Shown in pieces: positions 23,476-63,997 of a stretch of 64,000 nt of DNA (the first letter of the stretch is position 1; each line of letters opens with the position of its first letter). The translations under genes were made by a program, and so were the position numbers. The notes beneath the pieces are model-generated. The model was given only the letters and a program-made list of their open reading frames with translations, was not told where the DNA came from and ran no database searches. Source of the stretch: Minisyncoccota bacterium (GTDB lineage Bacteria; Patescibacteriota; Minisyncoccia; Phycocordibacterales; JABAAK01); contig OZ244939.1 in NCBI GenBank assembly GCA_965222235.1, positions 94,041-158,040 on the forward strand, given 5' to 3'.

Positions 23476-23480
23476 ACCCG

Positions 23481-24010: not shown

Positions 24011-24141
24011 ATTTGAGTATTTATATTCCCAAAAACCCTTATTTACCAAGCTTTTTTGTTGACTCTTTTTTCTGCCCTATGTGGAAAAACACCGAGATCC
24101 GCTATTGACAACAGTACTACGGATGCTACACTTAACAAACA

Positions 24142-26322: not shown

Positions 26323-26510
26323 ATAGACGCTCCTGAAGGCAGAAATAATGAATCAACGAGCACGGAAAACACAATCGCGGCCACGTGCGCGCCGCAGGCG
26401 ACCGCAATCAAAGGAAAGGCCGCCAGCCCGGCAAACGGCAAAAGCGGCGCGAGCACCATACCGCTCACCAGGACACCGTATCCGATAGTTTTCTTTCGCA
26501 TGTCATTCAT
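26247..26510 (-). CDS. mreD: MreD-like small polytopic membrane protein
   Basis: 87 aa and hydrophobic. Position between mreC and mrdA. Confidence 0.35.
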   Translation of the reverse strand: MNDMRKKTIGYGVLVSGMVLAPLLPFAGLAAFPLIAVACGAHVAAIVFSVLVDSLFLPSGASIWTSLTFYTIPGLLFYAFLKHISRI

Positions 26511-26513
26511 ATA

Positions 26514-27221: not shown

Positions 27222-27239
27222 GTATACATACTACTACAC

Positions 27240-28379: not shown

Positions 28380-28381
28380 AG

Positions 28382-28933: not shown

Positions 28934-28983
28934 AGGTATATAGTAGCACAGGGCCGTTTTCAAGCAAAAGATGCCCGCGGGAA

Positions 28984-29622
28984 TCAGATAAATGCGAATA
29001 TCTGAAGTGTTCCTTTGTGCAGCGCACCGTGGTCAACGGCATCGCGCAGGTGCTCAACCGCCCTGCGGCACCGATCAACCGTATCGGCATCACCCGATGT
29101 CCTGATGGCGGTATGAAGATATATTTCGGCATCCCGGAGCAGTGCGAGAATTGCGGTGTGGCGAACACCTTCCCCCCGATCCCACAGTGTGTCAATCATG
29201 GCAAGCCGCTTTTTCGGCGCAGCACCGATGAACTCGGTGAAGTGCTCTGAAAGCGCGTTTCCGTCTTCCCCGTTGTTTTCAACAACATAGCAACGGGAGA
29301 GGAGTGTTTCCAGAACGGCGGTACCGGGCGGAAAGACGATAAAAAAGTATACTCCCTGCTGCATTTCTTCAAGTATTTTAAGCAGCGCATTCTGTGCCTG
29401 CACCGATGCACCGGTCGCCTCAAGAATTACCCGGCGCATCGGCGCATCTGTTGAATGGTGTGCGTACTCATGGAGCCAGCGCACATCCTCAACGCTGAGA
29501 TGTTTCCCGATTCGTATGACATATCGTTCCTCATGCACATTCGTCTCCACATGTTCGGGAACCGTGCCGAATATGATATATGCATGGTGCTGCGGACGCT
29601 CGCAGATGTCTTCAAAATTCAT
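28984..29622 (-). CDS. holB: DNA polymerase III clamp-loader delta-prime-like subunit (no intact Walker A)
   Basis: 212 aa. Sensor-1-like VQAQNALLKILEE is characteristic of clamp-loader AAA+ subunits. The N-terminal HAYIIFG lacks a GKT P-loop. Confidence 0.5.
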   Translation of the reverse strand: MNFEDICERPQHHAYIIFGTVPEHVETNVHEERYVIRIGKHLSVEDVRWLHEYAHHSTDAPMRRVILEATGASVQAQNALLKILEEMQQGVYFFIVFPPGTAVLETLLSRCYVVENNGEDGNALSEHFTEFIGAAPKKRLAMIDTLWDRGEGVRHTAILALLRDAEIYLHTAIRTSGDADTVDRCRRAVEHLRDAVDHGALHKGTLQIFAFI

Positions 29623-29655
29623 GTAGGTATAGTAACATCCGGGGTGTGCCGTACG

Positions 29656-30288
29656 CTATTCCTCCCCCCCGCACCGGTTGAGGACAAACGAAACGGTGTC
29701 CAACAGATGCCCTATATCCTCAGTCTCATCCAAGGATGTGCCGTAACGCAGCTTCAGCACACTGCTGACGGCATCGCGCGCGGTTTTCATCTCCTCCTGT
29801 TTTTCCTGCTCTGTCGCTCCGGTTCTGTTCAGGTGCCGCTCCAGCGTTTCTTCAACCAATTCGGTGTACAGAGCAGCGATGGTCGGCTGCTCGGCGCGCG
29901 CGGGCAGTGCACAACCGGAGAGATGCGCGAGCACTTCGGGAGATATAGAGCCGGTGCACCGCATACCGCCGGGAAATGTCCATGTCGGATACCGTTGTAT
30001 GTTCTCATCCCCGCACACCTGTTTCTGACTTTTTCGGTCGGGTTCCGAACATTCAACATACGGAAGGGCATCGTCAACCGGGGAAAATTCGCTCTTCTGC
30101 TGCGCGCACAGCGGACACCAAAAGGCACCGTAGAATACGGCATTGTTCTCCGTCAGACACTGTGCAAGTTCCGAGAGCGCGGCGCGGCGCGGCGCTTCAG
30201 ATCGATCCGCGTACCACAAGCCGGCGACAACCAGTGCCGCTATCACCACAGCCGCCGTGCCGTAGAGTAGACAGATCCTCTGTTCCAT
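29656..30288 (-). CDS. membrane-anchored thioredoxin-fold thiol-disulfide oxidoreductase
   Basis: N-terminal TM helix. FYGAFWCPLCAQQK CxxC motif. A second cysteine pair lies downstream. Confidence 0.5.
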   Translation of the reverse strand: MEQRICLLYGTAAVVIAALVVAGLWYADRSEAPRRAALSELAQCLTENNAVFYGAFWCPLCAQQKSEFSPVDDALPYVECSEPDRKSQKQVCGDENIQRYPTWTFPGGMRCTGSISPEVLAHLSGCALPARAEQPTIAALYTELVEETLERHLNRTGATEQEKQEEMKTARDAVSSVLKLRYGTSLDETEDIGHLLDTVSFVLNRCGGEE

Positions 30289-30306
30289 ATACCGCTGAGT
30301 ATACCA

Positions 30307-31335
30307 TTATTTCGACAGCAGTGCGCGGCGATGAAAATCCAGATGTCCCGTCTGAATGCTTCTGCCGATACCTCTGATGACGGCATACTCCGGTTCGTCC
30401 GCGACGTACACCGGCACATTAATCTGACGCTCAATAACTTGTGCGATATTGTTGAGCTTCGCGACACCGCCGGTTAGGATAATACCCCCTTCAATAATAT
30501 CGGAAGCGAGTTCGGGGGCGGTGTTCTGAAACAGATTCACAATAGTCTCCAGTATCTTCTGTATCTCACCCTGAACCGCCTCGGCGATATCGTTGGATGT
30601 AATGCGAATAATGCGGGGGAGTCGGGAGTTAACATCACTCCCTTTCACCTTTACCTCCGACGGCGATTCGGAAAGCGTGGCGGAACCGATGGTTTCTTTC
30701 ACCTGCCTGGCGACATCCTCGCTGATGAGCAGATGGTGCTGGCGCTGTATGTGCCGGACGACAGATGCATCCATATCATTTCCGCCGATTTTCGTTGAGC
30801 TGTAGCCGCTCATACCTCCCAGAGATATGACGGCGGCTTCGGTCAGACCCGCACCGATGTCGGTAATCATACGGCCGTGCAGTTCATCGCGGTCCATGCC
30901 GACACCGAACGCGGCAAGAATGACTTTTTGCTCGGTGAAAACATTTCTGGCGCCGGTGCGCTTGCAGGTCTGAATCACCGCACGCTCTTCCATGCTGGTG
31001 ACTTCGGTCGGGGTGCTGATTAAAATGTCGTTTCTGATAACCTGAAACATACCCCGAACTTTTTTCAGCGCTTCATACAGGTATTGCTCGGCGATGCGTT
31101 CATCCTGAATGACGCCGTGAGAAACAATGTTATGTATTGATATACTGTCCGGCGCCCTGCCGACCATTTCATGCGCGCAGTCGCCGACACATACCAGCTT
31201 CTTATGCTTCTCTTCTCCCTCAAACGCAAGTGCGCTCGGCTCGTCAAAAACGATACCGTTGTACGGAAGATATATCCTGGTGCGTGAGGTACCCAAATCA
31301 ATGCCGACATCGCGGGAAAAGGAGAATAGTGCCAT
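30307..31335 (-). CDS. second MreB/Mbl-like actin homologue (divergent)
   Basis: DVGIDLGTSRTRIY and DIGAGLTEAAVISLGGM (MreB-type phosphate motifs). Start at ATG 31335. The upstream 60 codons of the annotated ORF are probably untranslated. Confidence 0.7.
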   Translation of the reverse strand: MALFSFSRDVGIDLGTSRTRIYLPYNGIVFDEPSALAFEGEEKHKKLVCVGDCAHEMVGRAPDSISIHNIVSHGVIQDERIAEQYLYEALKKVRGMFQVIRNDILISTPTEVTSMEERAVIQTCKRTGARNVFTEQKVILAAFGVGMDRDELHGRMITDIGAGLTEAAVISLGGMSGYSSTKIGGNDMDASVVRHIQRQHHLLISEDVARQVKETIGSATLSESPSEVKVKGSDVNSRLPRIIRITSNDIAEAVQGEIQKILETIVNLFQNTAPELASDIIEGGIILTGGVAKLNNIAQVIERQINVPVYVADEPEYAVIRGIGRSIQTGHLDFHRRALLSK

Positions 31336-31665
31336 GTACGGAGTATACCACAGCGGTATTTTAGCATCCCCTTCCCTGCTACACTGGGTATGTATGGACT
31401 CAATCGGCAGACATATTCCGTCTTTTTTGAAGGATAAAAAAAACCCGACCTCGGAGCGGGCCCATGTAATACAGACAATATGCGACACGCTGTTTGACGA
31501 TACACAGTTCAAAAAAATACTCGGTCAGACGCGGCAATTTACGGTGAGTGAAATCAGATCAATTTTTGACCAGTCAAAGGGCTGGGAGAAAAACCCTCAG
31601 GCGCTTTTCTGGAAACTGTTGCGGGAAAAACAGGTACTGATCCGCGATCAGATCGATCCGGACAG

Positions 31666-31899: not shown

Positions 31900-32017
31900 A
31901 AATATATTTCTTTTAAAATAGTAATGGTCACATTGTATCATATCCGCCGTGTGGTACCATGTGGAAGGATGTACGCTGTGCACCTGTCTTCAACAATCAA
32001 AAGAGGAGTATCCCTCA

Positions 32018-33466
32018 ATGATTACCCTTCCGACACGACCGAGCATTCACCGGATACGGCGGGAAACCGTCCGTGTCTACAAACATCTGGCCGACTTTTC
32101 CATAACCGCGAAAGTGTCGGGCAACGCGGAGAGAGACGCCGCCATCGGCGCCGCTCAATCCAGAAACCCCGCCACTCTGCTGGAGCGCATGCTGGAGCTC
32201 ACCCTCCAGGCGGTGAAGCGCATCATCGGTCGATATTTCCGTAACTACGGTCATTCATCGGTTGGCGAAATGGGCAACCTCTATCTTTCCTTTGAGGGAA
32301 TTTCAATGATCGGCGCACTGCGCACGATTAATTTCCCGCTCTTCAGGGGACAAGAAGCGTCAACCCGATATCTTGACTTCAGCGAGCCGCGGTACAGACT
32401 CCCTCAGTCCCTGTCCGTAAATCAGCATCTCCTTACCACCGTTGAACATGCGGTGCATGAGTGGTTTGGTCTGTACCGCGATGTGCTGGATATATGCCGA
32501 AATGCGTTCCGCAAAGACGGCATGCCGGAGAGTGAGATTGAGCCGCGCGCATTTGACATCGCGGGGGCATTTCTGCCCGTCGCCGCGAAAACAAGTGTAG
32601 TCATGACCTGCGATATACGGAACGCAATTGAGCAGGCGTGGCGCCTGCAGTCACATCTGGATGAAGAGGAGACACGCTGCATCGGCGAACACATGCTCGC
32701 GATAATTGACAATCTGTGCCCCAACTCGGTGAAGGAGCGTACGGAACAGGACTTGGCGGACTTACACTATGTCAGAACGATGCTGTGGGTGCTGAGCCGG
32801 GAGGACTCCGATGTATCGGCGGCACGTCAGCACAATCTCTGCTTCGCTGCAAGCACGGCCGACGCGGAAGACAATGACGGTCAGCTGAGCGACAATGAGG
32901 GGGGGGTTGCGGCTCGGATGGACTACGGGAATTTCAATTCGCAGGCATTATTCAAGGATGTCATCATGAATCCCGGTCGGGACGTCGTCCTTCGTCGCCC
33001 CGACAGCATTCTCGGACGATACGGTTCCATCACCGGCACCGGTGAGCTGTCATTCCGCTCCATGCGGGACATGTGGCGGCACCGTCCGTACGCCAAGGAG
33101 TTCCATCTCCTCCCGTACACCTTCGCCGACTGGTACATCCGGCAGCTGCCAATCGAACACCGATCACGGATTGAGGAACGAATAGACGCTATCTACAGCA
33201 CGCTGAAGCCCGTTGGGATACAACTGAGAAAAGACCTGCTCTACGCGATGCCGATGGGAATAATGAGCCGGTTTGAAATGACCGGGCCGCTGGACAAGTG
33301 GCTGTATCTCCTCAGACTTCGTTCCGGCGTGAAGGTGCATCCCGAAGTTCGGGGCATCGTACACAGCTGGATTCGCGATCTGGCGGAACACCTGTCATGC
33401 TCTGAAGACCTCTTCGGAGATATGACCCCGTCCGCGGATTACCGCAAGCGGTCCGGCGACAAATGA
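32018..33466 (+). CDS. divergent ThyX-family (flavin-dependent thymidylate synthase-like) protein, enlarged
   Basis: YGHSSVGEMGNLYLSFEGISMIGALRTINFPLFRGQEASTRY aligns with the ThyX core H.SV.EH....F...ISR....E..RHR..S.SQ.SQRY, but RHR is replaced by RTI. About 480 aa versus about 230-250 for ThyX. Confidence 0.4.
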   Translation: MITLPTRPSIHRIRRETVRVYKHLADFSITAKVSGNAERDAAIGAAQSRNPATLLERMLELTLQAVKRIIGRYFRNYGHSSVGEMGNLYLSFEGISMIGALRTINFPLFRGQEASTRYLDFSEPRYRLPQSLSVNQHLLTTVEHAVHEWFGLYRDVLDICRNAFRKDGMPESEIEPRAFDIAGAFLPVAAKTSVVMTCDIRNAIEQAWRLQSHLDEEETRCIGEHMLAIIDNLCPNSVKERTEQDLADLHYVRTMLWVLSREDSDVSAARQHNLCFAASTADAEDNDGQLSDNEGGVAARMDYGNFNSQALFKDVIMNPGRDVVLRRPDSILGRYGSITGTGELSFRSMRDMWRHRPYAKEFHLLPYTFADWYIRQLPIEHRSRIEERIDAIYSTLKPVGIQLRKDLLYAMPMGIMSRFEMTGPLDKWLYLLRLRSGVKVHPEVRGIVHSWIRDLAEHLSCSEDLFGDMTPSADYRKRSGDK

Positions 33467-34842: not shown

Positions 34843-36138
34843 ATGAATACACGGAATAGATGGCCTAAGCAGGATGTGAAACATGATGATATCGTTTTTG
34901 ATACCTATAATCCTCGATTACCTCTCGAGCAGATAGGAATGCTGAATCAGGAAAAACTTTATAATTTCTTGATAGAAAGCGGGGCTGACAGGATAGCGTA
35001 TCAGATGCGTATTGATGGCTTTCATAACAGTGAAATACTAATCGTAGTGAAAGAGGGTAGCAAATTTGTGGTTGTTGACGGCAACAGACGCCTGGCAGCT
35101 TTTCGGTATGCATGTAAAAAAGAATGGGTAGACGGTATTATCACCTTATTGCCCATCACTATCGCTCCGTCCCGGGAAGAAGCCGATCAGGAGATAGTAA
35201 CTAAACATGTCGGCAATCTAAAATCTAATTGGAATTCATTGAATCAATTAAATAAGTTGCAGGAAATTGTTTCAAGATCAAAAGTATCATTGGTTGAAAT
35301 TAGCAGACAACATCCAGCGCTAGGAAAAGAAAAAGGAATAAAAAGAAGATTAAAAAATCTTGCGATATATAATATTATTACTCGGCAACCATGGTTGACT
35401 GAGAAAGAAAAGAACATCCTCAAACAGCGCGGTATTAACATGATTAATCGTTTTTTCACCTCGAAATCCAGCAATGTATTTTTTGATTGGGATGCTATGG
35501 ATTATCCGTTTGATGAATTAGAATTGGAACGAAAAATTAATGACCCCGCGAGCAAGCGTATTATTAAACGGTATATCTTAAACAGGAACACATCAGCACA
35601 AATTAAAGCTTCGGAGGTAGAGAAGATATATCAATCCACAACATCTTCATCAGAATCCGACAAACAAGGCAGAAAGGTTTCTACTCAAAAGAAAACTACA
35701 GAGCGAACAGTTTTGGTGCCGAATGACTGCACCATTACCATAATAAAGCAAGGGAGAATAAAAAATATATACTTGGAACTTAAAAATGATCTACGGGTGG
35801 ATAAAACACCGAATGCGGCTGCAGTACTTTTCAGAGTTTTTATTGAGTTGAGCTTAGATCACTACCTGGAGAAAAAGATGAGGTATATTCCCGGAAGAAA
35901 CGAGAACATTTCTGGAAAGATCACTAAAGTTACGAACTATATGGAAAAAGAAGAAATTGCCAATAAAAACCAACTGAACAATATCAGGGGCGTTGGATCT
36001 GGAAACACTTACTTAAGTATAGAGAATTTTCACGCATATGTACACTCAACAAGAACTTCACCGACGCCGGAGGATATCAAACTGAAGTGGGACAATCTGC
36101 AGGAGTTTTTTGAGATGTTGTGGGATGATGTATCATAA
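34843..36138 (+). CDS. ParB/Sulfiredoxin-fold N-terminal domain protein with large unknown C-terminal region
   Basis: 431 aa. SKFVVVDGNRRLAAFRYA matches the ParB-nuclease DGxxR core. The C-terminal about 300 aa has no recognisable motif. The Dam-like MTase starts 8 nt after its stop. Confidence 0.55.
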   Translation: MNTRNRWPKQDVKHDDIVFDTYNPRLPLEQIGMLNQEKLYNFLIESGADRIAYQMRIDGFHNSEILIVVKEGSKFVVVDGNRRLAAFRYACKKEWVDGIITLLPITIAPSREEADQEIVTKHVGNLKSNWNSLNQLNKLQEIVSRSKVSLVEISRQHPALGKEKGIKRRLKNLAIYNIITRQPWLTEKEKNILKQRGINMINRFFTSKSSNVFFDWDAMDYPFDELELERKINDPASKRIIKRYILNRNTSAQIKASEVEKIYQSTTSSSESDKQGRKVSTQKKTTERTVLVPNDCTITIIKQGRIKNIYLELKNDLRVDKTPNAAAVLFRVFIELSLDHYLEKKMRYIPGRNENISGKITKVTNYMEKEEIANKNQLNNIRGVGSGNTYLSIENFHAYVHSTRTSPTPEDIKLKWDNLQEFFEMLWDDVS

Positions 36139-36145
36139 AAGTAGT

Positions 36146-36955
36146 ATGAAAACACCGCTTAGGTATCCTGGAGGGAAGGCGAAATTCGCTCCATATTTTT
36201 CTAATTTCATAGACGAGATGGGTATTAAAGATGCTATTTTTGTTGAGCCATTCTGCGGTGGTGCGGGTGCGGCGATAAAATTGTTGTTAGCAAGGAAGGT
36301 AAAAAAAATTTATATCAATGATTTTGACAGAAGTATTTATGCATTTTGGCATACCATCCTTAATGATTCAGAAAAAATAATTAAAAAAATCAGAAGGGCC
36401 CCTGTAACCATAGAGCAATTTGATAAGCAGCGACTTATACAAAAAAGGAAAGATTCCGTTGATTTATTTACCTTGGGATTTTCCACCTTTTTTTTGAATC
36501 GTACCGCTTTTTCAGGTATTTTGACCGGTGGTCCGATAGGCGGCAGAGCGCAAAACGGTCCGTATATGTTAGGGTGTCGTTTTAACAAAGAAGATTTGAT
36601 ACAGAGAATACAACTATTGTTCCGTCATAAGAATCAAATAAAGATTTTTAATAAAGATGCGGTTGATTTTTTGGCGATGCTTGTTATAAAAAAACTGCCG
36701 AAATCAAGAACAATATTTTACATCGATCCTCCTTATTTTGAAAAAGGTGTGTACTTGTATAAAAACAGCTATTTAACAGAAGATCATAAAGTGCTGGAAA
36801 ACACACTAAGAAAAACAAAAAAAGCAATTTTTGTTTCTTACGATAATAGAAAAGAAATTAAAGAGATATACTCCTCATGGCAATCTCACATGGTTGATGT
36901 CTCCCATTTTGCCAGGAAATATAAACCAGCTAAGGAAATTATTTTTTACAAATAG
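36146..36955 (+). CDS. Dam-family (D12 class) N6-adenine DNA methyltransferase
   Basis: PLRYPGGK, EPFCGGAGAA (motif I), NRTAFSG, IDPPY (motif IV) in the alpha-class order. Start at ATG 36146 (MKTPLRYPGGK). Confidence 0.8.
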   Translation: MKTPLRYPGGKAKFAPYFSNFIDEMGIKDAIFVEPFCGGAGAAIKLLLARKVKKIYINDFDRSIYAFWHTILNDSEKIIKKIRRAPVTIEQFDKQRLIQKRKDSVDLFTLGFSTFFLNRTAFSGILTGGPIGGRAQNGPYMLGCRFNKEDLIQRIQLLFRHKNQIKIFNKDAVDFLAMLVIKKLPKSRTIFYIDPPYFEKGVYLYKNSYLTEDHKVLENTLRKTKKAIFVSYDNRKEIKEIYSSWQSHMVDVSHFARKYKPAKEIIFYK

Positions 36956-48768: not shown

Positions 48769-48842
48769 GGGTCTGTAGTTTAATCGGTAAAACAGCGGTC
48801 TCCAAAACCGCCGTTCCAGGTTCAAGTCCTGGCGGACCCGCC
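48769..48842 (+). tRNA. tRNA-Trp (CCA)
   Basis: GGGTCTGTAGTTTAATCGGTAAAACAGCGGTCTCCAAAACCGCCGTTCCAGGTTCAAGTCCTGGCGGACCCG. All four stems pair. Confidence 0.8.
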
Positions 48843-49736
48843 GTATTCCCCGTCAAGCAGGCGATACAGCGCGGAAAACTCATGCTCATAAAACCAGCGT
48901 GCCTCGGGGTACCGGCGCCACCAAGTTTCCTGCCGCTTCGCGTATGCCGTAATCGCTCTGAACAGATTCTCCCGTGTCTCCTCTTTAGAAATGCGGCGGA
49001 CAAGCATACGGGACAGGTGCCGACATTCAAGACCGAGACTGTCAAACCACATCGGATCCGTACCCGCATTGAGCAACACCCGCATTTCCTCGGTCATCGC
49101 CTCAAAGCGTTCATCAAGGCGCCGGGCGATACGCCTGTACAGGTGTTCCCTGTTGTGCCTGATGCCGATCATCATATATGAAAAACGCTTCGTCCGTTTC
49201 CTGCGGAACGGAGTGCCGCCGCGGATAATTTCAAGGGCGCGGATTATCCGCCGTGGATTATCCGCATCTATCGTTGCATACGCATCCGGATCGCGTTCCT
49301 GCAGTTCCTGTCGGAGTGCCTGTATGTTTTTTCGCTCCGCATTGCGGCGGTACACGGGATCGGGAGGCACCTCGCTGAGTGCCCCCTCAAACAGCACTGC
49401 GTCGATATAAAAGCCGGTGCCGCCGGTGATAATCGGCAGTGCGCCGCGGGAACGGATATCCGACACCAGCGGAACGGCGCGTTCGGCGAACGCATGCGCG
49501 CTGTAATAGTCGCCGACAGACACCTCGCTGAGCATGTAATGCGGCACCCCCCGCATCTCCTCCTCGGACACCTTTCCGACCGTATGCACCAGTGAAGCGT
49601 ACACCTGCCGTGAATCTGCGGAGATGATTTCACCGCCGTACCGTAGCGCGATGTCAACTGCTAATGCGCTCTTTCCGCTTGCGGTTGATCCGACAATGAC
49701 GAGAACCGGAGCAGTATATATAGCATCGGTGTTCAT
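48822..49736 (-). CDS. miaA: tRNA dimethylallyltransferase MiaA
   Basis: P-loop LVIVGSTASGKSALA, ITGGTGFY. Start ATG 49736 right after tRNA-Leu. The annotated 3' end overlaps the tRNA-Trp 3' end by about 20 nt. Confidence 0.85.
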   Translation of the reverse strand: MNTDAIYTAPVLVIVGSTASGKSALAVDIALRYGGEIISADSRQVYASLVHTVGKVSEEEMRGVPHYMLSEVSVGDYYSAHAFAERAVPLVSDIRSRGALPIITGGTGFYIDAVLFEGALSEVPPDPVYRRNAERKNIQALRQELQERDPDAYATIDADNPRRIIRALEIIRGGTPFRRKRTKRFSYMMIGIRHNREHLYRRIARRLDERFEAMTEEMRVLLNAGTDPMWFDSLGLECRHLSRMLVRRISKEETRENLFRAITAYAKRQETWWRRYPEARWFYEHEFSALYRLLDGEYGGSART

Positions 49737-49738
49737 AG

Positions 49739-49823
49739 TGTGTGCCGGAGGAGGGACTTGAACCCTCACACCCGAAGGTACACGATTTTGAGTCGTGCGC
49801 GTCTGCCAATTCCGCCACTCCGG
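49739..49823 (-). tRNA. tRNA-Leu (CAA), CCA encoded
   Basis: Reverse complement GCCGGAGTGGCGGAATTGGCAGACGCGCACGACTCAAAATCGTGTACCTTCGGGTGTGAGGGTTCAAGTCCCTCCTCCGGCACCA. Confidence 0.85.
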
Positions 49824-50061
49824 CCTTGTGATACATACAGTATATACCCCGTTTACATTGATGCTGCACACATGAAAAGAATTCTTCTCCACAACGATGT
49901 ACGAAGGGAGGTTGTGTCGGGTGTGAGACTCACCTGCCCGGCGGCGGCGGAAGAGGGAGACAGCACTCCCGCCGTATGTCCGCTGAACGACAGCACACCG
50001 ACAAGTATACCCCGCCTGTCCGTTTCGTCAAAAAATACACCGATATGATGCAAGTAATACG

Positions 50062-50144
50062 GTGCCGGAGGAGGGATTCGAACCCTCACACCCGAAGGTA
50101 CACGATTTTAAGTCGTGCGCGTATACCAATTCCGCCACTCCGGC
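50062..50144 (-). tRNA. tRNA-Leu (TAA)
   Basis: Reverse complement GCCGGAGTGGCGGAATTGGTATACGCGCACGACTTAAAATCGTGTACCTTCGGGTGTGAGGGTTCGAATCCCTCCTCCGGCAC. Near-duplicate of the CAA isoacceptor. Confidence 0.85.
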
Positions 50145-50183: not shown

Positions 50184-52478
50184 CTACCGCACCTCAAATC
50201 CTTTCTCCTGCAGCACCCGATACAGCCGTTCCGTCTGTTCATTGACAATACCGTCATCAAGTGTCTGAGAATCCGATTGAAATACCAGACGGAACGCATA
50301 TGATGTCCGTCCGTCTTTGACAAATGTGTCAAATAGATTGGTGCGGTATAGATAGCTGCCGCCGTGATCGTGCAGCAGCCGTTCCGCATCTTCTGCAGAA
50401 ACACCCGGGGGAACGAACATCGCAACATCGCGGAGCGCGAACGGATACGGCGAAGGAATACGATACTGCACATCCCCGATCGCCGGAGGAAGCATGTAGG
50501 TGTCAGCGGTAAGATCAATATCGTCAAGCACCACCTCCAATACCGAACCGTCAAAACTGCCGGGCAGGTCAATGCGGGAACGTACCGCCTCCTCAATCTC
50601 TTTCATATTCACCTTCGGCCTGCCGACCGTTTCAGTTACGCCGAGCGCAAGATGAACCTTTTCACCGTCTTCAGTGAAAACACTGCCGATTTCCATAATC
50701 CGGATATCACGCAGGCCGAGCAGCTCGCCGTTGTGCGCATTGCGCACAAGTGCCTCCTCAATCCCCTGCCGGAGATTCGGGCGGAGACACCCTTTGTCTT
50801 TCGCCACCGGATGTGCAACACAGATATCCCCCCTGTCACGGAATGAATAGGTGATGACTTCGGAAAAACCGAGCTCCCCGAGCTCCCGAATGAGCGCCAA
50901 ACGCTTCGCGAATGTTTTCGTGACCGTTCGTGCCGGTACATCGCCCGCCGGATCGGCTGCCGGTACGGCATCATAACCTGACATCCTGCCGATCTCCTCA
51001 ATGACATCGGCTTCGTGCTGTATATCAGGCCGCTCAACAGGAACGGTAATAATGAATCGCCGCTCGCCCCCGGACCATATCTCAGATGCATACACCATCC
51101 GACTGCGCTGAAACGGACGGCGCACGACGGCACGTTCGCCGGTGTCCCCTTCCGCCTCAATGACGGTATCGGCATCCAACAGAACCCCCGCATGATTGAT
51201 ACCCCGTTCGAGCGTGCCGGGAGACACCGGATACCCCGCCTCATATACCTGTTTTGTATGCAACGGCAATTTCGGATCGGCGGACACCATAAACACGAGG
51301 TCACCGGGTTTCGGATCAATCACCGGATTTGTTGAAAGATACTGATTAACAGACATACGGGGAAGTGAGGTGCCCGCCTGCGCCGCGGCAAAACATATGA
51401 GCGAGGAGCAGTCAAACATATCCGGCGCGTCTTTGGTGACTGATGCCCCCCAGGCATATGGTTTGCCGATCTGTAACTGCAGCACATCAAGGAAATATGC
51501 CCGGGGATCGCCGTACTCAAACGGCAGCTGCAGCCGCTCCAGTACATTCCGTATATCCTTCTCCGTGTATGATGACCCGAGATACTGATTCACACCGGCG
51601 ACTGACATGCCTGTTTTCCGCTGCCGTCCGAGCGGTACGCGCCGGCAGTCATATGACCCGGTGACGGTGCCGTACTGACCGAACACTTCCGCGACGCGAT
51701 GCATGGTATAGTCAATGAGCTCGGCGGGAAGATTCTGAGAAAAACGCAGACCGGCATCGGAGGTAAGATTAAGGCGGCGCATCGTTGCACGCACCGCGGC
51801 GCCCTGAAAGGTTGCCACTTCTACATATATATCTTTTGTGTCCGCATCAACTCCGGCATCCTCGCCCCCCTTAATGCCGGCCAGCCCCACGGCGCGGTCG
51901 TTGTCAACAATGACCGTATCCTCGGGTGTCAGCGTGATCGTGTCGCCGCCGAGAAGTGTCAGTGTTTCACCCTCCTTTGCCTGCCGTACACCGAACATTC
52001 CTGTAGTTTTTGCCGCATCAAATACGTGCGTCGGCTGGCCGATATCAAAAAGCAGGTAGTTAGATAAGTCAACAAGCGGACTGATGCTCCGCTGTCCGAG
52101 CGCCTCCAGCCGCTTCTGTATTTCAGCGGGCGTTTCGCGCAGATTAATATCTGACACGTTCAGCACGGTGTACCGGTCGCACCGGTCGGTATAAATATAT
52201 TCCTTTTTCTCCGCGAATGAAAACGGTGTATCAAAATACCGCCGGTTCATGGCAAGCGAGAAAATGGCCGCGATCTCTTTCGCGATGCCGTAGTGCGCAA
52301 GACAATCCGCGGAACGGTTCGGCAGAATATCAAGTTCATAGACCGTGTCACCGTTCTGTTCCGCTGCCGACTCAACCTCAAACGAATGCCGCATCAGCCC
52401 TTCACGAATATCTTCCGGAGGCGGCAGCGGTATATCAAAGAATGATTGTAACCAGGCATGGCTGTATATTCTTTTCAT
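50184..52478 (-). CDS. pheT: phenylalanyl-tRNA synthetase beta subunit with an embedded NlpC/P60-like domain
   Basis: B3/B4 editing domain (LVDLSNYLLFDIGQPTHVFD). B5. B6/7 start FIITVPVERPDIQHEADVIEEIGRMSGYD. C-terminal anticodon-binding domain. Residues about 325-472 form an extra domain (see findings). Confidence 0.85.
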   Translation of the reverse strand: MKRIYSHAWLQSFFDIPLPPPEDIREGLMRHSFEVESAAEQNGDTVYELDILPNRSADCLAHYGIAKEIAAIFSLAMNRRYFDTPFSFAEKKEYIYTDRCDRYTVLNVSDINLRETPAEIQKRLEALGQRSISPLVDLSNYLLFDIGQPTHVFDAAKTTGMFGVRQAKEGETLTLLGGDTITLTPEDTVIVDNDRAVGLAGIKGGEDAGVDADTKDIYVEVATFQGAAVRATMRRLNLTSDAGLRFSQNLPAELIDYTMHRVAEVFGQYGTVTGSYDCRRVPLGRQRKTGMSVAGVNQYLGSSYTEKDIRNVLERLQLPFEYGDPRAYFLDVLQLQIGKPYAWGASVTKDAPDMFDCSSLICFAAAQAGTSLPRMSVNQYLSTNPVIDPKPGDLVFMVSADPKLPLHTKQVYEAGYPVSPGTLERGINHAGVLLDADTVIEAEGDTGERAVVRRPFQRSRMVYASEIWSGGERRFIITVPVERPDIQHEADVIEEIGRMSGYDAVPAADPAGDVPARTVTKTFAKRLALIRELGELGFSEVITYSFRDRGDICVAHPVAKDKGCLRPNLRQGIEEALVRNAHNGELLGLRDIRIMEIGSVFTEDGEKVHLALGVTETVGRPKVNMKEIEEAVRSRIDLPGSFDGSVLEVVLDDIDLTADTYMLPPAIGDVQYRIPSPYPFALRDVAMFVPPGVSAEDAERLLHDHGGSYLYRTNLFDTFVKDGRTSYAFRLVFQSDSQTLDDGIVNEQTERLYRVLQEKGFEVR

Positions 52479-52479: not shown

Positions 52480-53184
52480 TTAAAACTGGTTGATCAGACG
52501 GAGATCCGCTTTGTAGAGCAGGCGTACATCATCAAACTGGTAGCGCAGCATTGCAATGCGGTCAATCCCTATCCCGAACGCAAATCCACGGTACCGGCGC
52601 GGATCAATGCCCACCCGCGAGAGCACCTGCCGGTGCACCATACCGCACCCGAGTATTTCTATCCATTGATCATCCCCGTTCCGTTTCATGTCCACCTCCA
52701 GACTCGGTTCGGTGAACGGAAAAAAACTCGGGCGGTACCGGATTAAAACAGTACTGCCGAACAGGCGGCGCAGCACGGCTTCAAGCACCCCTTTCATGTC
52801 GGCAAGTGAGGTATCTTCGGTGATACACAGTCCCTCAAGCTGGTGAAACTGTGCTTCATGCGTTGCATCAGTCGCCTCATTCCTGAATACTTTGCCCGGA
52901 ATGATAATGCGGATGGGAGGCTGGTGGGTTTCCATATGCCGTATCTGCACCGGCGAGGTGTGCGTCCGCATTACCTGTCCCGGGGTGTCTTTAATCCAAA
53001 AGGTGTCCTGCATGTCCCGGGCCGGATGATCTGCGGGGATATTCAGCGCGTCAAAATTGTGGTACTCATCCTCAAGCTCGGGGCCGACGGCGATTGTGTA
53101 GCCGAATTCATCAAAAATACCGGTCATCTCGCCGATGATCGCAGTGAGGGGGTGCGTGCTTCCCCGTCGTATCCCCGATTCCAT
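52480..53184 (-). CDS. pheS: phenylalanyl-tRNA synthetase alpha subunit, catalytic core only
   Basis: 234 aa. Class II motifs HPARDMQDTFWI, RPSFFPFTEPSLEVDM. Lacks the N-terminal coiled-coil arm. Confidence 0.85.
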   Translation of the reverse strand: MESGIRRGSTHPLTAIIGEMTGIFDEFGYTIAVGPELEDEYHNFDALNIPADHPARDMQDTFWIKDTPGQVMRTHTSPVQIRHMETHQPPIRIIIPGKVFRNEATDATHEAQFHQLEGLCITEDTSLADMKGVLEAVLRRLFGSTVLIRYRPSFFPFTEPSLEVDMKRNGDDQWIEILGCGMVHRQVLSRVGIDPRRYRGFAFGIGIDRIAMLRYQFDDVRLLYKADLRLINQF

Positions 53185-53205
53185 ATGTATGTCAGTATAT
53201 CATAC

Positions 53206-53676
53206 ATGACCGGTATTCTTCTTGAAAATATACGGAGTGTGTTCAATGTCGGCAGTATATTCAGAACGGCCGATGCGGTCGGCGCCTCATTTGTACTGCT
53301 GTGCGGGTATACGCCGTGCCCGATTGACCGCATGGGACGCGTCAATGTAAAGATGCATAAAACGGCTCTCGGAGCGGAGATGAGCGTTCCGTGGAAGCGG
53401 TTTGAAAGCACACGGAAGGCGCTGAATGCCTATCCCGATCTGATGCCGGTTGCTGTTGAACAGACACCGTCCGCGGTACCCTACACGGAATGCGCCGTCG
53501 AACACCCCCTGTTCATATTCGGTAACGAAGTGGACGGCATCAGCCGGGACATTCGTGCGCAGGCACAGCGGCATATTTGCCTGCCTATGCGGGGATCAAA
53601 GGAATCGCTCAATGTCTCCATGTGCGCCGCGGTGGTGCTCTACCATCATTACTCCCGGGCGGCTGTCGCACCTTAA
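53206..53676 (+). CDS. SpoU-family tRNA 2'-O-methyltransferase (TrmL-like size)
   Basis: 156 aa from ATG 53206. SPOUT motifs FIFGNEVDGIS, LNVSMCAAVVLY. The longer annotated ORF overlaps pheS on the opposite strand. Confidence 0.6.
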   Translation: MTGILLENIRSVFNVGSIFRTADAVGASFVLLCGYTPCPIDRMGRVNVKMHKTALGAEMSVPWKRFESTRKALNAYPDLMPVAVEQTPSAVPYTECAVEHPLFIFGNEVDGISRDIRAQAQRHICLPMRGSKESLNVSMCAAVVLYHHYSRAAVAP

Positions 53677-60142: not shown

Positions 60143-63100
60143 TCAAAACGCATCCTGTATGAAGCTGGGACGGACGGACGGAAGGACTGCCGGAGGGGTG
60201 AGCAGGACGGAGCCGGTGTCTGAAGTGGGGAAGGTGTAGCCGCGGGGTTCAGCAGGCGGTGTGTACTCTTCTATGACCTCTACGGTCGGGATGATGACCC
60301 TCGGTGTTTCAGGAGGGGTGAGGATGAAGACCGGGGCGGTGCGTCTGGTTACGGCGGGGACGGGGAAACGGATCTCCTGCTGTACAACGGTCGGCGGTGT
60401 TTCTTCCTCCGGGGGTGCCTGCCGTTTGGCGAGGAGTTCCTGAATACGGGCACTGATGACTGCTATCTGCTGTTTGATGGCGGCGATGAGTTTTCGGCGC
60501 ACGGTGTCGGCAACGATGTCCACGGATTCTCCCACCGGTTCAATGACGGGGACGAGGATGCCGGTTTCGCTCTGAGGGTCGGCGGTGTCAGTGTTGAATC
60601 TGAAGAGTCCGATACCTCCGCCTCCTCCTCCGCCGCCACCTCCGCCTCCTCCGCCGCCGCTTCTGACACCGGTGATGGGTACGTGGACGGAGGTGTTCTC
60701 ATCCTCCTTCTGAGCGTTGCCCACGGCATCAACGGCGATGAGATCACATGTTGATGCGTCGTAGGTTTCCTGAGGAATGGTGATGTCATATGTATACCGT
60801 ACATCGTCCTTCTGTGCACTGTCTGTGAATGCCGGCGAACGGGGGAATGCGGCACAGGCTCCTGTGAAGGACAGGTATATCGCCTCATTGCCCTTCATGG
60901 TCGGGTGGTTGTTGCGGTCGACAAATGCCGACACTTTTACTATTGTCCCCTGTGTGCTGATGAGGAACCGTTTCACCGCCGGCGCCGCACTGTCCACAAA
61001 GAAGAGGTAGGAGGTGCTGCCTGCGGTGCTGTTGCCTGCGGGATCTGCAACCGTCGGCAGGGTGATGTTGCGGATACCGGAGGAAGCACCGTCAGGTACC
61101 GCATGATTGATAGTTGCGGGGAAGGTGCTGAGATCATGATTGGTGGTGCCGATGGTTGCTCGCAGCGGGTTTGCCTCACTCACCGCTTTCCCGTTCACCC
61201 ATACCGGGTTAGCGTCTGTCAGGGCAAGATTGACCTGTACCGTGCCGCCGGGTCTCGCCGCATTCTGTTTCGGTGTGACGGTATATATCGGAGCTGTACG
61301 GTCTACGGTGATGGGTGTGTTCGTCACAGGACCGCTGAGAGAGACGGTGAACTCTTCGCCGACGGTGAAGATGCGCGTCAACAGTGCGCTGTTGCCAGCA
61401 GCAGGACTATGGTCCACATCAAAACTCAGGTACTCCCTGTTGAGCCCTTGACGTGCGTCATCAATAGCGGTGGTGAAGGTATCCGCCCCCTTGCGCAGGG
61501 TAATGTCATACCCCGCAAGGACTGCCTTCTCCTCCACGTTGTTGCCGTTTTCATCCGTGATACGGAGGAAAAGGTCAAGATTAGTATTGTCATAATACAA
61601 ATCAGCGAGGGTATATGTTGTGCCGCCTGCCGTGAAGGTGGCGGGGGCGACGGATCCCACCGCCGATATGAGATTTAATCCGTAAAATGTTTCTGCGTAT
61701 ATTCCTTCACCTTCAATGAACTGCCCACTCGCCGCCACTCCGGTATATATTGTCTCCCTTCCCTGCACTACCAGGGTGGTCTCAATGGTGATGGGGTTGC
61801 CTGCTCTGTCGGTCGCGGAAAAGGACAGGGTGCCGGTTCCCTCCTCAGCGGTGTCAGTCAGGGTCAGAATATCACAGCTCAGTGCGTTGTCTGTATCGGT
61901 CATGCAGTTTGTAAATGATTCACCGGCGAAGGTGAGGGTGATGTCTGTGAGTGTTTCGCTTGCGGTGAGAGCACCGAGGGTGAGTGTGTCTCCTTCTGTG
62001 GCATATGCCGGGTTGGTGTTGCCTGAGGTGAGCATGAGGGTGCCGAGGAGTGCCGGGGCGGTGTCGTCAACCGTCACCGTGCCGATCCTGACTACTGAGC
62101 CGTGTGTGCCGGAGCGGTCAATGTCTATGGATGCGTAGAGGTGGAGATCGTCGGTTGTTTCGGGGACGGAGAGTGTGGTGCTGAGTGTACCGGTCCCGTC
62201 GGCTATTGTTGTCAGGGGGGTGATTCCTTCACGTTCCGTGTCACTTAACTGACCGTCGCTGTCTGCGTCAACCGTGCTTTCAACGAGGTAGAAGGCGATC
62301 TCGGCTTCCGGTGCTGACTGAGCGGTGAGTGCGCGGGAGCCTGAACGGACAATGTGGTTCATACCGTCTGAGGTGCCGTCGGTGAATCGGAGGCCTCCCG
62401 CCGTTTCAATGGCGTCTTCGGTGTGTTTCGCCGCCCTGTTCCCCGCCTCGTCAGTGAAGATGAAACAGATGCCGATTGCGGTATCGGCTGGTGTAGCACC
62501 CGTGCCCGGGGTGTAGGCGGTGCCGGTTGTGCCGGTTGAGCAGGATGCCTGTGCGGTGTTGTCCGCCCACAGAGCGGTGGCGGCCTCATCAGCGACTGCA
62601 CGGTAGTCAGATCCTGACTTAATGATGATGATGGTCGGTGCTTCGGTGTCCAGCGTGTAGGGTACCGCCTCGGAGCAGACTCTGTTGCCTGCGGTGTCTT
62701 CCGCACTGCCGTAGAATGTATATGCCCCGTCGGTGTCAAGGGTGTGTGCGGTGATGTCCGTTGCTGTGTCAGATGACCCCAGTGTCACCTCGGTGCCTGC
62801 CTCAACGGAGCAGGTATTGTCGGTGTAAAGACCGATGAGAGCGTTTGTTTCCGTACTCATCGTGAAGACTGGCTCTTCAACATTGCCGGGGGTGCCGGTC
62901 GGTGTCTTCAGCACAAATGCTGTCGTCGGATTACTCACATCAACCGTCACCTGTGTCATGCTGACCGGTGTACTCAATTCACTGTCGCCCAGTGCAGTGT
63001 TGGTGATGTATCCGCGGAGATCAACAGCGGTTGGTTCCTGCGGCGGGGCTATGATGGAGGCGGTGAACTGTCCGCCGACGGTGAAGATATTTTGGAAGAG

Positions 63101-63997
63101 TGACGACATATCACCAGTAGGATAAAAGCCGATATATGGGATTGAGCTAAAGAATGTAGTACCATCGTCAACATTCAGTGTGACGGTGTCGTCCCCCTTG
63201 GTCAACACGAGCGTGTGCCCGGCAAAGACCGTTTTCTCTTTTATGTCAGCACCGTCGGCTGTGTCAATCTGTATATGAAATTCATTTGGAGATTCATTCG
63301 TATTGAAATACAAGTTCTTAATCGTGTAGGCAGTGCCGTCTGCGGTGAATGTTACGGGGCTGATTGATCCGCCGGTGGCAATGATACCACTGGTTACTGA
63401 AGAAAATCCCATGGCTTCCCCTGCATTACCAGATGTCACCGTCCCGGTATATATCGTTGACGTCTCAGAAGCAGCCACCGGTGAACTCAATATTTTTGAA
63501 GTGGTGAACTGTCCGTTCCCGTCGGTGGTGACGGTCTCTTCATATGCGTTATCCCACGATTCACCGGCCTGTTTACCCTGCACCCGCACGGTTGAGTCCG
63601 GCAGCGTCATACCCGCATAACGGGGGTTTGGATTGTTGGTGATACTGTCTGTTTCGCTTCTGCCGGCATCGTCTTCGGTGAGCACACCGCTGTCGGTGAT
63701 GAGATCGGTTGCCTCATTCTTCACATGCACGGCGGAGCGGTTGCCGTAGCCGTCAGTCGCCATGACACAGGCATTGATGTTGTTGGTGCGCTGCACGATT
63801 GACAGAGGCGTGTAGTCAACGCCCGCATCAACAGGAACACAGGTGCCGCTGTTGGGATAGTCAAACTGTTTATAGGGCTCGGCGATCGGTCCGTCGTTAC
63901 GCGAGACCGCCGTCACCAGATAGGTGTCGCCTGACACCGATCCCCTGAGAGAGAGAGTGAATTGCGTGTCGGCGGTGGAGAAGAAATTATGAAACAA
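60143..63997 (-). CDS. giant extracellular surface protein (N-terminus beyond window) with Ig-like repeats, 15-Gly linker and Pro-rich C-terminal tail
   Basis: At least 1284 aa in one frame. T/S/G/A-rich beta repeats. GGGGGGGGGGGGGGG at 60615-60660. Coiled segment and PPxxP tail. Confidence 0.5.
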   Translation of the reverse strand: MFHNFFSTADTQFTLSLRGSVSGDTYLVTAVSRNDGPIAEPYKQFDYPNSGTCVPVDAGVDYTPLSIVQRTNNINACVMATDGYGNRSAVHVKNEATDLITDSGVLTEDDAGRSETDSITNNPNPRYAGMTLPDSTVRVQGKQAGESWDNAYEETVTTDGNGQFTTSKILSSPVAASETSTIYTGTVTSGNAGEAMGFSSVTSGIIATGGSISPVTFTADGTAYTIKNLYFNTNESPNEFHIQIDTADGADIKEKTVFAGHTLVLTKGDDTVTLNVDDGTTFFSSIPYIGFYPTGDMSSLFQNIFTVGGQFTASIIAPPQEPTAVDLRGYITNTALGDSELSTPVSMTQVTVDVSNPTTAFVLKTPTGTPGNVEEPVFTMSTETNALIGLYTDNTCSVEAGTEVTLGSSDTATDITAHTLDTDGAYTFYGSAEDTAGNRVCSEAVPYTLDTEAPTIIIIKSGSDYRAVADEAATALWADNTAQASCSTGTTGTAYTPGTGATPADTAIGICFIFTDEAGNRAAKHTEDAIETAGGLRFTDGTSDGMNHIVRSGSRALTAQSAPEAEIAFYLVESTVDADSDGQLSDTEREGITPLTTIADGTGTLSTTLSVPETTDDLHLYASIDIDRSGTHGSVVRIGTVTVDDTAPALLGTLMLTSGNTNPAYATEGDTLTLGALTASETLTDITLTFAGESFTNCMTDTDNALSCDILTLTDTAEEGTGTLSFSATDRAGNPITIETTLVVQGRETIYTGVAASGQFIEGEGIYAETFYGLNLISAVGSVAPATFTAGGTTYTLADLYYDNTNLDLFLRITDENGNNVEEKAVLAGYDITLRKGADTFTTAIDDARQGLNREYLSFDVDHSPAAGNSALLTRIFTVGEEFTVSLSGPVTNTPITVDRTAPIYTVTPKQNAARPGGTVQVNLALTDANPVWVNGKAVSEANPLRATIGTTNHDLSTFPATINHAVPDGASSGIRNITLPTVADPAGNSTAGSTSYLFFVDSAAPAVKRFLISTQGTIVKVSAFVDRNNHPTMKGNEAIYLSFTGACAAFPRSPAFTDSAQKDDVRYTYDITIPQETYDASTCDLIAVDAVGNAQKEDENTSVHVPITGVRSGGGGGGGGGGGGGGGIGLFRFNTDTADPQSETGILVPVIEPVGESVDIVADTVRRKLIAAIKQQIAVISARIQELLAKRQAPPEEETPPTVVQQEIRFPVPAVTRRTAPVFILTPPETPRVIIPTVEVIEEYTPPAEPRGYTFPTSDTGSVLLTPPAVLPSVRPSFIQDAF
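60615..60660 (-). repeat. (GGN)15 simple-sequence repeat encoding a poly-Gly linker
   Basis: + strand cctccgcctcctcctccgccgccacctccgcctcctccgccgccgc. Confidence 0.8.

Follow-up and report, generated by a model that had tools for sequence, protein, structure and literature searches.

Aminoacyl-tRNA synthetases are among the most conserved of proteins, and the extra domains that they carry nearly always serve in binding or editing of tRNA. The hydrolases nested within them, i.e. CP1 of LeuRS, IleRS and ValRS, INS of ProRS, N2 of ThrRS and B3/B4 of phenylalanyl-tRNA synthetase (PheRS), are conserved clade-wide and hydrolyse mis-acylated tRNA, and none is papain-like. A 2026 survey of domain insertions noted that synthetases often act as hosts, without mention of an NlpC/P60 domain in PheRS (PMC13114784), and a full-text literature search, with most subscription journals outside its coverage, found no paper on such a domain. 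The NlpC/P60 (P60) DL-endopeptidases, such as C. difficile Acd24020 (7cfl), B. subtilis LytE and CwlO and E. coli MepS/Spr, have catalytic residues in the order Cys, His, His/Glu, the nucleophile being surrounded by Tyr, hydrophobic, Asp, Ser and Arg residues, and are secreted or lipid-anchored proteins with SH3b, LysM or coiled-coil regions. YkfC, the dipeptidyl-peptidase VI (DPP VI) of Bacillus and Chlamydia trachomatis, is an NlpC/P60 enzyme of murein-peptide recycling, a γ-D-Glu-diamino-acid endopeptidase that works inside the cell on free peptidoglycan peptides, and Chlamydia, with its reduced genome, recycles such peptides by means of a cytoplasmic NlpC/P60 peptidase (PMC9928106). Glutathionylspermidine synthetase/amidase and trypanothione synthetase carry a cytoplasmic papain-like amidase in one chain with an ATP-dependent ligase-type enzyme, the amidase part being CHAP-type, within the wider NlpC/P60-CHAP group. 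Here we describe a P60 domain inside the PheRS β subunit (PheT) of a Minisyncoccota bacterium, encoded on a 64,000-nucleotide stretch of contig OZ244939.1 (assembly GCA_965222235.1, positions 94,041 to 158,040 of the forward strand), hereafter the window. The insert has the catalytic order and the residues around the nucleophile of the DL-endopeptidases, but lies within a cytoplasmic tRNA synthetase, where it resembles the nested hydrolases in being conserved across its clade and the glutathionylspermidine and trypanothione enzymes in sharing a chain with a ligase-type enzyme. Both parent families are well known; what is new is the combination, a cell-wall-type cysteine peptidase in the B5 hairpin of PheRS β, a linked Peptidase_C39_2 (C39_2) gene, and a series of losses and fissions.

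A sequence-only reading of the window had proposed a genuine NlpC/P60 domain in pheT at about 51065-51506 (residues 325-471 of the protein), and the profile search that it recommended places the match far past chance and above the curated cut-off. The Pfam model NLPC_P60 (PF00877) aligns to residues 338-399 of the whole PheT with E 1.2e-10 and 41.7 bits (gathering cut-off 23), and to the excised segment with E 1.2e-12 and 48.2 bits. Only profile positions 1-61 are aligned because an extra β-hairpin (about residues 398-420; some 20-35 residues) separates the GDLVF strand of the insert from its catalytic His; the insert also has four extra residues ahead of the nucleophile ('GASVxxDAP' in place of 'GGxxP'). 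NCBIfam gives weaker matches of the insert to RipC, p60, RipB and related hydrolases, and a profile built from 36 inserts finds the C. difficile autolysin Acd24020 (7cfl) among PDB sequences with E 1.3e-27. Modelled alone with 36 homologous inserts, the segment reaches a predicted local distance difference test score (pLDDT) of 96.0 and a predicted template modelling score (pTM) of 0.90, so that the structure prediction proposed at the outset also supports folding as an independent papain-like domain. A Foldseek search of this model against the PDB returned 62 matches at E<=0.001, and the 50 listed are all NlpC/P60-type cell-wall hydrolases, the nearest being DL-endopeptidases and not acyltransferases or CHAP amidases. 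The fold is papain-like and non-permuted: a helix starts with the nucleophile, and a β-strand bears the His. We therefore rejected the acyltransferase-type branch (LRAT, PLAAT and YiiX), which is circularly permuted with the Cys near the C-terminus, and distant in fold.

The host protein has the B3_4, B5, catalytic-like and FDX-ACB domains of PheRS β in order, preceded by a B1-like N-terminus and with B5 split by the insert (Pfam), and pheT starts one base after the stop codon of pheS. An AlphaFold2 model of full-length PheT has pLDDT 94.7 and pTM 0.84, and its best structural matches are bacterial PheRS β chains (E about 1e-45). The TIGR00472 (pheT_bact) score is 330.2 bits, under the equivalog cut-off of 402.65, with the match beginning at profile position 157, and Pfam gives no match to the B2/tRNA_bind (OB) domain in this protein; despite the sub-threshold score the 764-residue product is regarded as the organism's PheT, in a reduced form. 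The adjoining PheS is reduced likewise: TIGR00468 matches it with 315 bits over profile positions 66-322 only, so that it comprises the catalytic core alone and lacks the N-terminal coiled coil by which the PheS of other bacteria touches tRNA. When the B3/4 domain is aligned to solved PheT chains, 'GQPTH151VFD' falls opposite their 'GQPMHAFD' and 'YVE220VATF' opposite their 'FLESAFF', and among 94 homologues His151 is invariant and Glu220 is present in at least 90%. We take His151 and Glu220 to be the editing residues, by equivalence to E. coli βHis265 and βGlu334, and judged by its motifs the editing signature (GQPxH151xFD, E220) is intact. The idea that the insert replaces a decayed editing domain was rejected on this ground.

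The insert had been placed between B5 and B6, but it lies within B5, in the hairpin formed by the last two strands, as Pfam, alignment and model agree. Pfam B5 profile positions 33-67 fall on residues 468-502, so the segment 'FIITVPVERPDIQHEADVIEEIGRMSGYD' ('FIITVPVERPD...GYD'), previously read as the beginning of B6, belongs to B5 as its second half. At the insertion point P. aeruginosa PheT has a tight hairpin that reads 'LTVVADGEGQWSVGVP' in the alignment to solved chains, and insert-less relatives read 'LEFIRKTDSQEQFTVSVP'; alignment to insert-less PheT, another check proposed at the outset, confirms the insertion and fixes its boundaries at residues 325-472. In the model strand 320-323 passes directly into the first insert helix (325-334) and the last insert strand (461-466) into strand 474-479, and the insert occupies the turn of the B5 β2-β3 hairpin. 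The junctions, marked by a slash, read ...EYGD/PRAY... and ...GGE/RRFI..., and the G+C content of the insert (0.53-0.58) is no different from that of the rest of pheT. We regard the architecture and the domain identity, NlpC/P60 within PheRS β, as virtually certain.

The insertion is widespread in the lineage. Among the 120 best PheT homologues, which span 63% to 30% identity and are all Parcubacteria/Paceibacterota (those named are Candidatus Kaiserbacteria, Parcubacteria group and Minisyncoccia, Kaiserbacteria being placed in the Parcubacteria group of Patescibacteria), 96 carry PF00877 and have 142-180 extra residues at a shared point, and the other 24 have 1-7. When one genome per GTDB species was scanned with a pattern from a conserved C-terminal part of PheT, 594 relatives were confirmed, and among the 80 best of these loci 73 encode the long form of PheT; the titles among the best 80 are Paceibacterota, Kaiser-, Nomura-, Lloyd-, Yonath- and Taylorbacteria, and many 'uncultured Saccharibacteria' labels among the loci look generic. 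The sequence-only reading had asked whether homologous insertions exist across the lineage, and had called the arrangement highly unusual: this holds against every solved PheRS, none of which carries the insert in a structure search with the PheT model, but among the sampled Parcubacteria homologues the insert is the commoner state. Searched against 1.84 billion representative sequences, the insert profile found 192 proteins at E<=1e-30, and the best 150 are almost all PheT of 750-830 residues, matched at about residues 330-490. Free-living close relatives of the insert outside PheT were sought among these 150 and rejected, those examined by length, match position or sequence being PheT, stand-alone derivatives of the insert with its B5 halves (B5::P60, below), or multi-repeat proteins with additive scores. 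The same protein appears in databases as 'C40 family peptidase', 'PheRS beta' or 'PheRS beta subunit-related', and these inconsistent automatic names are a warning to annotators.

The putative active site is conserved throughout. All the motifs cited in the sequence-only reading are present (Y341-A-W343, D356-C357-S358, P373-R374, G392-D393-L-V-F396 and H429), and its statement that the Cys and His are intact stands, both being conserved among inserts (Table 1); Cys357 is in addition invariant in three homologue alignments (A1, A2 and A3). Tyr341, Phe355, Asp356, Ser358, Gly369, Pro373, Arg374, Gly392, Asp393 and Phe396 each occur in 95% or more of the 96 inserts. Mean pairwise identity is 42.5% for the insert, against 44.2% for B3_4, 36.6% for the catalytic-like module and 46.2% for FDX-ACB. 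An identity close to that of the editing domain, together with the retained active site, indicates purifying selection on a working active site and not a decaying passenger, and the conservation makes it very probable that the insert is catalytically active.

The residues around the nucleophile point to a class of substrate. In YkfC bound to its product L-Ala-γ-D-Glu the S1 site consists of Tyr226, Trp228, Asp237, Ser239 and a small residue at position 257, with Arg255 in the hydrogen-bond network, and it was proposed that proteins keeping Tyr226, Trp228, Asp237 and Ser239 along with the triad bind X-L-Ala-γ-D-Glu (PMC2954226). By motif and spacing the equivalents in the insert are Tyr341, Trp343, Asp356 and Ser358, with Arg374 for Arg255 and Ser376 for Ser257. 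Three spacings are the same as in YkfC, from Cys to Arg (+17), from Arg to the small residue (+2) and from His to the third residue (+12, His291 to His303 in YkfC), and the position equivalent to Ser376 is Ser, Ala or Thr across the insert family. Peptidoglycan-type peptides are thus the leading candidates for the substrate, as the S1 residues are shared with P60 enzymes that bind γ-D-Glu. The YkfC/DPP VI subfamily is further defined by N-terminal SH3b domains, which contribute Tyr118, and by Asp256, which binds L-Ala's free amino group (PMC2954226). The insert shares the S1 residues of this intracellular enzyme and looks like a γ-D-Glu-specific DL-endopeptidase outside the YkfC subfamily. Neither a signal peptide or lipobox nor SH3b, LysM or coiled-coil regions are seen in the window protein, judged from its conserved B1-like PheT N-terminus and flanking Pfam PheT domains only, with no predictor run.

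In many relatives the insert has a partner gene. Among the GTDB loci that could be assessed, 51 of 71 with the insert and none of six without it have, downstream of pheT and in the same orientation, a gene for a Peptidase_C39_2 protein (PF13529) (Fisher p about 0.001, uncorrected for phylogeny), and in 43 of 50 cases it is within 100 nucleotides of pheT or overlaps it. The product has 173-254 residues and no obvious signal peptide. All 36 aligned partners match PF13529 (best E 2.1e-16), 18 of them match Pfam Peptidase_C39 as well, and Q11, C25 and H138 are each conserved in 90% or more; among solved structures the nearest is 3erv, an uncharacterised C39-like peptidase (E 6e-07). Peptidase_C39_2 is listed in phage surveys as a catalytic domain of endolysins.

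Although widespread, the insert is dispensable to PheT. In a neighbour-joining PheT tree with the insert columns masked, two insert-less groups fall inside the second large clade, and insert-less and insert-bearing proteins are interleaved within the window's own clade, giving at least three nested insert-less places overall. Two homologues from the same sample and on syntenic contigs, P0016 with the insert and P0033 without it, are 92% identical outside the indel. The two contigs, L088 and L089 (sample ERZ21830300), share 90-97% DNA identity over pheS, pheT and downstream genes; in the 200 nucleotides just 5' of the indel (L088 3181-3380) the identity falls to 73% and then 57%, which suggests a recombination event that exchanged the B5 region, with or without the insert. 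In several insert-less hairpins the first residues of the insert appear to have been left behind, e.g. 'YLDPQK/RF' against 'YVDPRKQF...EERF', and this points to deletion. Among insert-bearing PheT the identity of the insert tracks that of the rest of the protein, as expected of vertical descent. The insert is therefore one that has been lost in several sublineages while PheT was retained and, unlike the pattern of synthetase editing domains, it can be lost or live alone.

The separate copies take two forms. Complete stand-alone open reading frames (ORFs) of 199-241 residues, which make up at least 35 clusters, encode a P60 domain preceded by the first half of B5 and followed by the second, and a search seeded by one of these ORFs found B5::P60-C39_2 fusions of 391-399 residues in at least 15 clusters. 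Some stand-alone or fused genes lie away from any PheRS gene, and one fused copy (L083) adjoins ftsW, murG, a PBP5-type carboxypeptidase and mraY. A separate C39_2 gene directly follows stand-alone B5::P60 in three contigs, and the start of one is present on a fourth, short contig. On four contigs the stand-alone gene adjoins a protein of 382-389 residues made of the PheS core and FDX-ACB, the layout of monomeric mitochondrial PheRS, which scores 247 bits with TIGR00469 (pheS_mito; cut-off 258) and 257 with NF051887 ('PheS-related mystery ligase SrmL'; cut-off 300). The order in L085 is rpsB, tsf, a few genes, the PheS-core+FDX-ACB gene, B5::P60, C39_2 and gyrB, and by comparison with the gene order in the window it looks like the same locus after pheT had lost B1, B3/4 and B6/7. 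At such a decayed locus the anticodon-binding domain would, it appears, have joined PheS and the B5::P60 unit been kept; if so, the peptidase unit may be worth keeping when the rest of PheRS β is not.

The explanation we favour, and to which as a composite we give about an even chance, is that the insert is an active γ-glutamyl-type cytoplasmic amidase, carried by PheRS β and acting on peptidoglycan-derived peptides. We infer its activity, its cytoplasmic location (from the lack of a signal peptide and from its being part of PheRS), its class of substrate and its independence from aminoacylation. A canonical P60 domain would have entered the turn of the B5 hairpin at an early date and been inherited vertically through the Parcubacteria (Paceibacterota), with PheRS β as carrier only and the insert as an autonomous cytoplasmic hydrolase. 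Cys357 would attack the amide bond, His429 and Glu441 would complete the triad, and Tyr341, Trp343, Asp356, Ser358, Arg374 and Ser376 would form the γ-D-glutamyl pocket, as in characterised P60 enzymes. The predicted substrates are X-L-Ala-γ-D-Glu-diamino acid peptides or precursors, cleaved after γ-D-Glu and met in the cell during recycling or scavenging, as by YkfC, and in most relatives the insert would act together with the small cytoplasmic C39_2 peptidase encoded just downstream. An autonomous cytoplasmic amidase is suggested by the intact P60 domain and its pocket, the intracellular host protein, the organism's peptidoglycan genes, the separability of the unit and its coupling to C39_2. 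The genes in question, for a Mur ligase, two class-B penicillin-binding proteins (PBPs), mraZ/mraW and two mreB, indicate by their content that the organism is able to make peptidoglycan. A role independent of aminoacylation and editing is probable, and the assignment of a peptidoglycan-type γ-D-Glu peptide as substrate is tentative, somewhat short of an even chance.

Several observations weigh against this explanation. The γ-D-Glu pocket is drawn from motif spacing and not from superposition of the models, and the features of YkfC/DPP VI are absent, there being no SH3b match (Pfam) and Met375 standing in place of Asp256, a position that is Met, Ile or Val among the inserts. No C39_2 gene is present in the 64-kb window, nor within reach of pheT in the closest GTDB relatives (L001-L003), and the two-enzyme picture may not apply in the window's sublineage. 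The B5 halves accompany the P60 domain always, even in the stand-alone genes, and in four of the eight stand-alone or fused contexts examined the gene adjoins a PheRS gene. Within the subclade of the window, B5's first half (residues 283-322, 51513-51632) has a mean identity of 0.62 in proteins with the insert and 0.51 in those without it, the identity of the rest of the protein being 0.60 and 0.70 respectively; this tighter constraint when B5 hosts the insert suggests packing or cooperation between B5 and the peptidase. Retention of B5, its constraint and the synteny with PheRS genes could reflect a PheRS- or tRNA-linked role. The choice of PheT as host is also left unexplained.

The same cytoplasmic cysteine amidase might act on something other than peptidoglycan, which we consider rather unlikely. 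Its substrate would then be another γ-glutamyl compound, for which a glutathione-like thiol or polyamine conjugate, poly-γ-glutamate and folyl-polyglutamate are candidates, or a peptide or protein processed jointly with C39_2, as in leader-peptide removal. C39-family peptidases classically cleave leader peptides in the cell, and the matches of half the partners to Peptidase_C39 fit this, as does the absence from the insert of the YkfC residues that bind the L-Ala amine. However, the closest relatives by sequence and structure are all peptidoglycan DL-endopeptidases, the Tyr/Trp/Asp/Ser signature was defined for X-L-Ala-γ-D-Glu (PMC2954226), and the loci that we examined have no candidate precursor-peptide gene beside them; C39_2 is also an endolysin catalytic domain, and the one fused copy noted above lies in a peptidoglycan-synthesis neighbourhood.

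A tRNA-linked role, in which the insert is a new cis-editing or transfer module that hydrolyses mis-acylated, D-aminoacyl or N-acylated aminoacyl-tRNA(Phe) or transfers Phe via a Cys357 thioester, is distinctly unlikely. It would account for the choice of an aminoacyl-tRNA synthetase as host and for an insert conserved like the B3/4 editing domain, for the B5 halves retained in every copy and the greater constraint on the first of them, and for stand-alone copies so often beside a PheRS gene; the PheRS is, moreover, otherwise stripped, with PheS lacking the tRNA-binding coiled coil and PheT lacking B2. In a more specific form, which we hold to be improbable, B5::P60 would be a new kind of synthetase-borne catalytic module, docked by the B5 winged helix, whose target is Phe-AMP or the end of tRNA(Phe) that bears the aminoacyl or peptidyl group. 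It could serve in thiol editing, as a peptidyl-tRNA hydrolase, or in transfer of Phe, bound as a thioester to Cys357, to an acceptor peptide that C39_2 might have trimmed, and such a module, if real, would connect translation in these minimal bacteria with modification of the cell wall or of protein N-termini. Yet with the B3/4 signature intact no replacement is needed, the pocket residues are those with which cell-wall peptidases bind γ-D-Glu, and the insert is distant from its acyltransferase-type relatives. Nor does a tRNA-linked role fit the repeated loss of the insert from PheT that stayed, or the copies that stand away from PheRS genes or are fused to C39_2, a domain known from endolysins. 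To our knowledge no enzyme that acts on aminoacyl-tRNA has the NlpC/P60 fold, which we also count against such a role. Of the functions raised in the sequence-only reading, a moonlighting activity or domesticated insertion is thus the one we favour, and an editing-related activity is disfavoured by the intact B3/4 domain, the γ-D-Glu residues, the repeated loss and the separate genes.

It is very improbable that the insert is a non-catalytic binding domain or scaffold, one that would sense muropeptides to tune PheRS or hold a partner in the manner of inactive RipD. Inactive NlpC/P60 domains exist, RipD itself is among the structural matches, and the rigid full-length model (pTM 0.84) suggests fixed packing on the PheT core. 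Such relatives, however, lose exactly those residues that are kept here, Cys357 and His429 being retained in all but one of the inserts (and Cys357 in all) in sequences only 30-60% identical, along with the oxyanion and S1 residues. An artefact or recent accident, i.e. an assembly chimera, frameshifted fusion, mobile element or intein, has a negligible chance even though the organism is uncultivated and known only from metagenome assemblies, for the reading frame is unbroken, the G+C content unchanged, the insertion point shared by the 96 homologues and the 73 GTDB loci, and the divergence of the insert in step with its host protein, and an intein or mobile insertion is rejected by the lack of HINT, intein or transposase matches (Pfam, NCBIfam) and of Cys, Ser or Thr junction residues, the residue after the insert being Arg or Phe.

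The favoured reading, of a cytoplasmic amidase carried by PheRS β, has wider implications. The host bacteria have very small genomes and are unable to make most building blocks, and if the insert is active in the cytoplasm it would provide an unrecognised route for the breakdown or reuse of peptidoglycan peptides. The relatives also offer a natural series, in which the insert is present, is cleanly lost, persists as B5::P60 alone or fused to a second peptidase, or accompanies a pheT reduced to a single-chain, mitochondrial-like PheRS. Closed genomes are among those with the insert (OY282360.1, OY764332.1 and OZ244141.1) and those without it (OZ241963.1). The features described are collected in Table 1.

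Table 1. Positions of the pheS-pheT locus, the P60 insert and related features in the window and in contigs of relatives (L numbers)
Feature	Sequence	Position	Strand	Basis or remark
pheT (PheRS β, 764 residues)	window	50184-52478	minus	longest ORF; Pfam, TIGR00472, full-length model
FDX-ACB anticodon-binding domain (B8), residues 676-763	window	50190-50453	minus	Pfam E 1.2e-13
Catalytic-like module (B6/B7), residues 506-623	window	50610-50963	minus	Pfam tRNA_synthFbeta E 9e-08
B5 second half, residues 473-505, 'RRFIITVPVERPDIQHEADVIEEIGRMSGYDAV'	window	50964-51062	minus	Pfam B5; aligns to P. aeruginosa PheT
NlpC/P60 insert (MEROPS C40), residues 325-472 (148 residues)	window	51063-51506	minus	
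Predicted third triad residue Glu441, codon (12 residues past His429)	window	51156-51158	minus	in the family His 71, Glu 16, Asp 2
Predicted catalytic His429, codon	window	51192-51194	minus	95/96 inserts
Putative γ-D-Glu (S1) signature, Tyr341, Trp343, Asp356, Ser358, Arg374, Ser376	window	51351-51458	minus	conservation and mapping of YkfC motifs
Predicted nucleophile Cys357, codon (motif F355-D356-C357-S358-S359)	window	51408-51410	minus	96/96 inserts
B5 first half, residues 283-324, ending with strand 320-323 '...LQLPFEYGD'	window	51507-51632	minus	Pfam B5 in two stretches; model
B3_4 editing domain, residues 100-269	window	51672-52181	minus	Pfam E 1.9e-47
Editing signature, Glu220 codon	window	51819-51821	minus	alignment to solved PheT chains
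Editing signature, His151 codon	window	52026-52028	minus	alignment to solved PheT chains
pheS (PheRS α, 234 residues), directly upstream of pheT	window	52480-53184	minus	Pfam tRNA-synt_2d E 2.4e-94, residues 5-234
Cell-envelope cluster	window	16274-31512		
Mur ligase	window	16274-17584		
Class-B PBP	window	20529-22280		
mraW and mraZ	window	22582-23990		
Class-B PBP	window	24595-26322		
MreB paralogue	window	27240-28379		
MreB paralogue	window	30307-31512		
C39_2 gene (example from L004-L072)	L013	5336-5908		
C39_2 gene (example from L004-L072)	L024	5360-5908		
C39_2 gene (example from L004-L072)	L051	5349-5906		
Stand-alone B5::P60	L081	846-1505		
Stand-alone B5::P60	L082	68-769		
B5::P60-Peptidase_C39_2 fusion	L083	10001-11194		
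Stand-alone B5::P60	L084	10001-10600		
Stand-alone B5::P60	L085	8803-9504		
Stand-alone B5::P60	L086	9519-10187		
Stand-alone B5::P60	L087	3616-4284		
PheS-core+FDX-ACB protein	L085	7655-8803		
PheS-core+FDX-ACB protein	L086	8312-9481	minus	
PheS-core+FDX-ACB protein	L087	2409-3578	minus	

In the window rpsB and tsf are followed by a small ORF, a SpoU methylase gene, pheS and pheT, and downstream of pheT come two tRNA-Leu genes and miaA. The longest ORF of the SpoU-type methylase (52843-53676, plus strand) shares about 340 nucleotides with pheS, which lies on the other strand; the SpoU domain covers residues 125-267 only, and the true start is thus probably near 53200. A tRNA-Trp gene, miaA and the two tRNA-Leu genes (CAA and UAA) are packed between parB and pheT (48769-50144), the tRNA-Leu genes filling the slot that the C39_2 gene has in most relatives. 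There is no second copy of the P60 domain in the 64-kb window.

Elsewhere in the window, defence-type genes comprise an N6/N4 DNA methylase with an MvaI/BcnI-family restriction endonuclease (8270-9947), followed by a KAP-family P-loop NTPase (10078-11412), and further methylases are a D12-class adenine methylase (36110-36955) and a truncated N6_Mtase ORF (19425-20123). A ThyX-like ORF of 505 residues (31949-33466, plus strand) matches the Thy1 domain at residues 60-259 only, its C-terminal 245 or so residues having no Pfam match. Probable surface proteins are encoded on the minus strand by two adjacent lamin-tail ORFs of 299 and 802 residues (4461-7775) and by an ORF of 1284 residues with a single Big_13 match (60143-63997), which reaches the end of the window.

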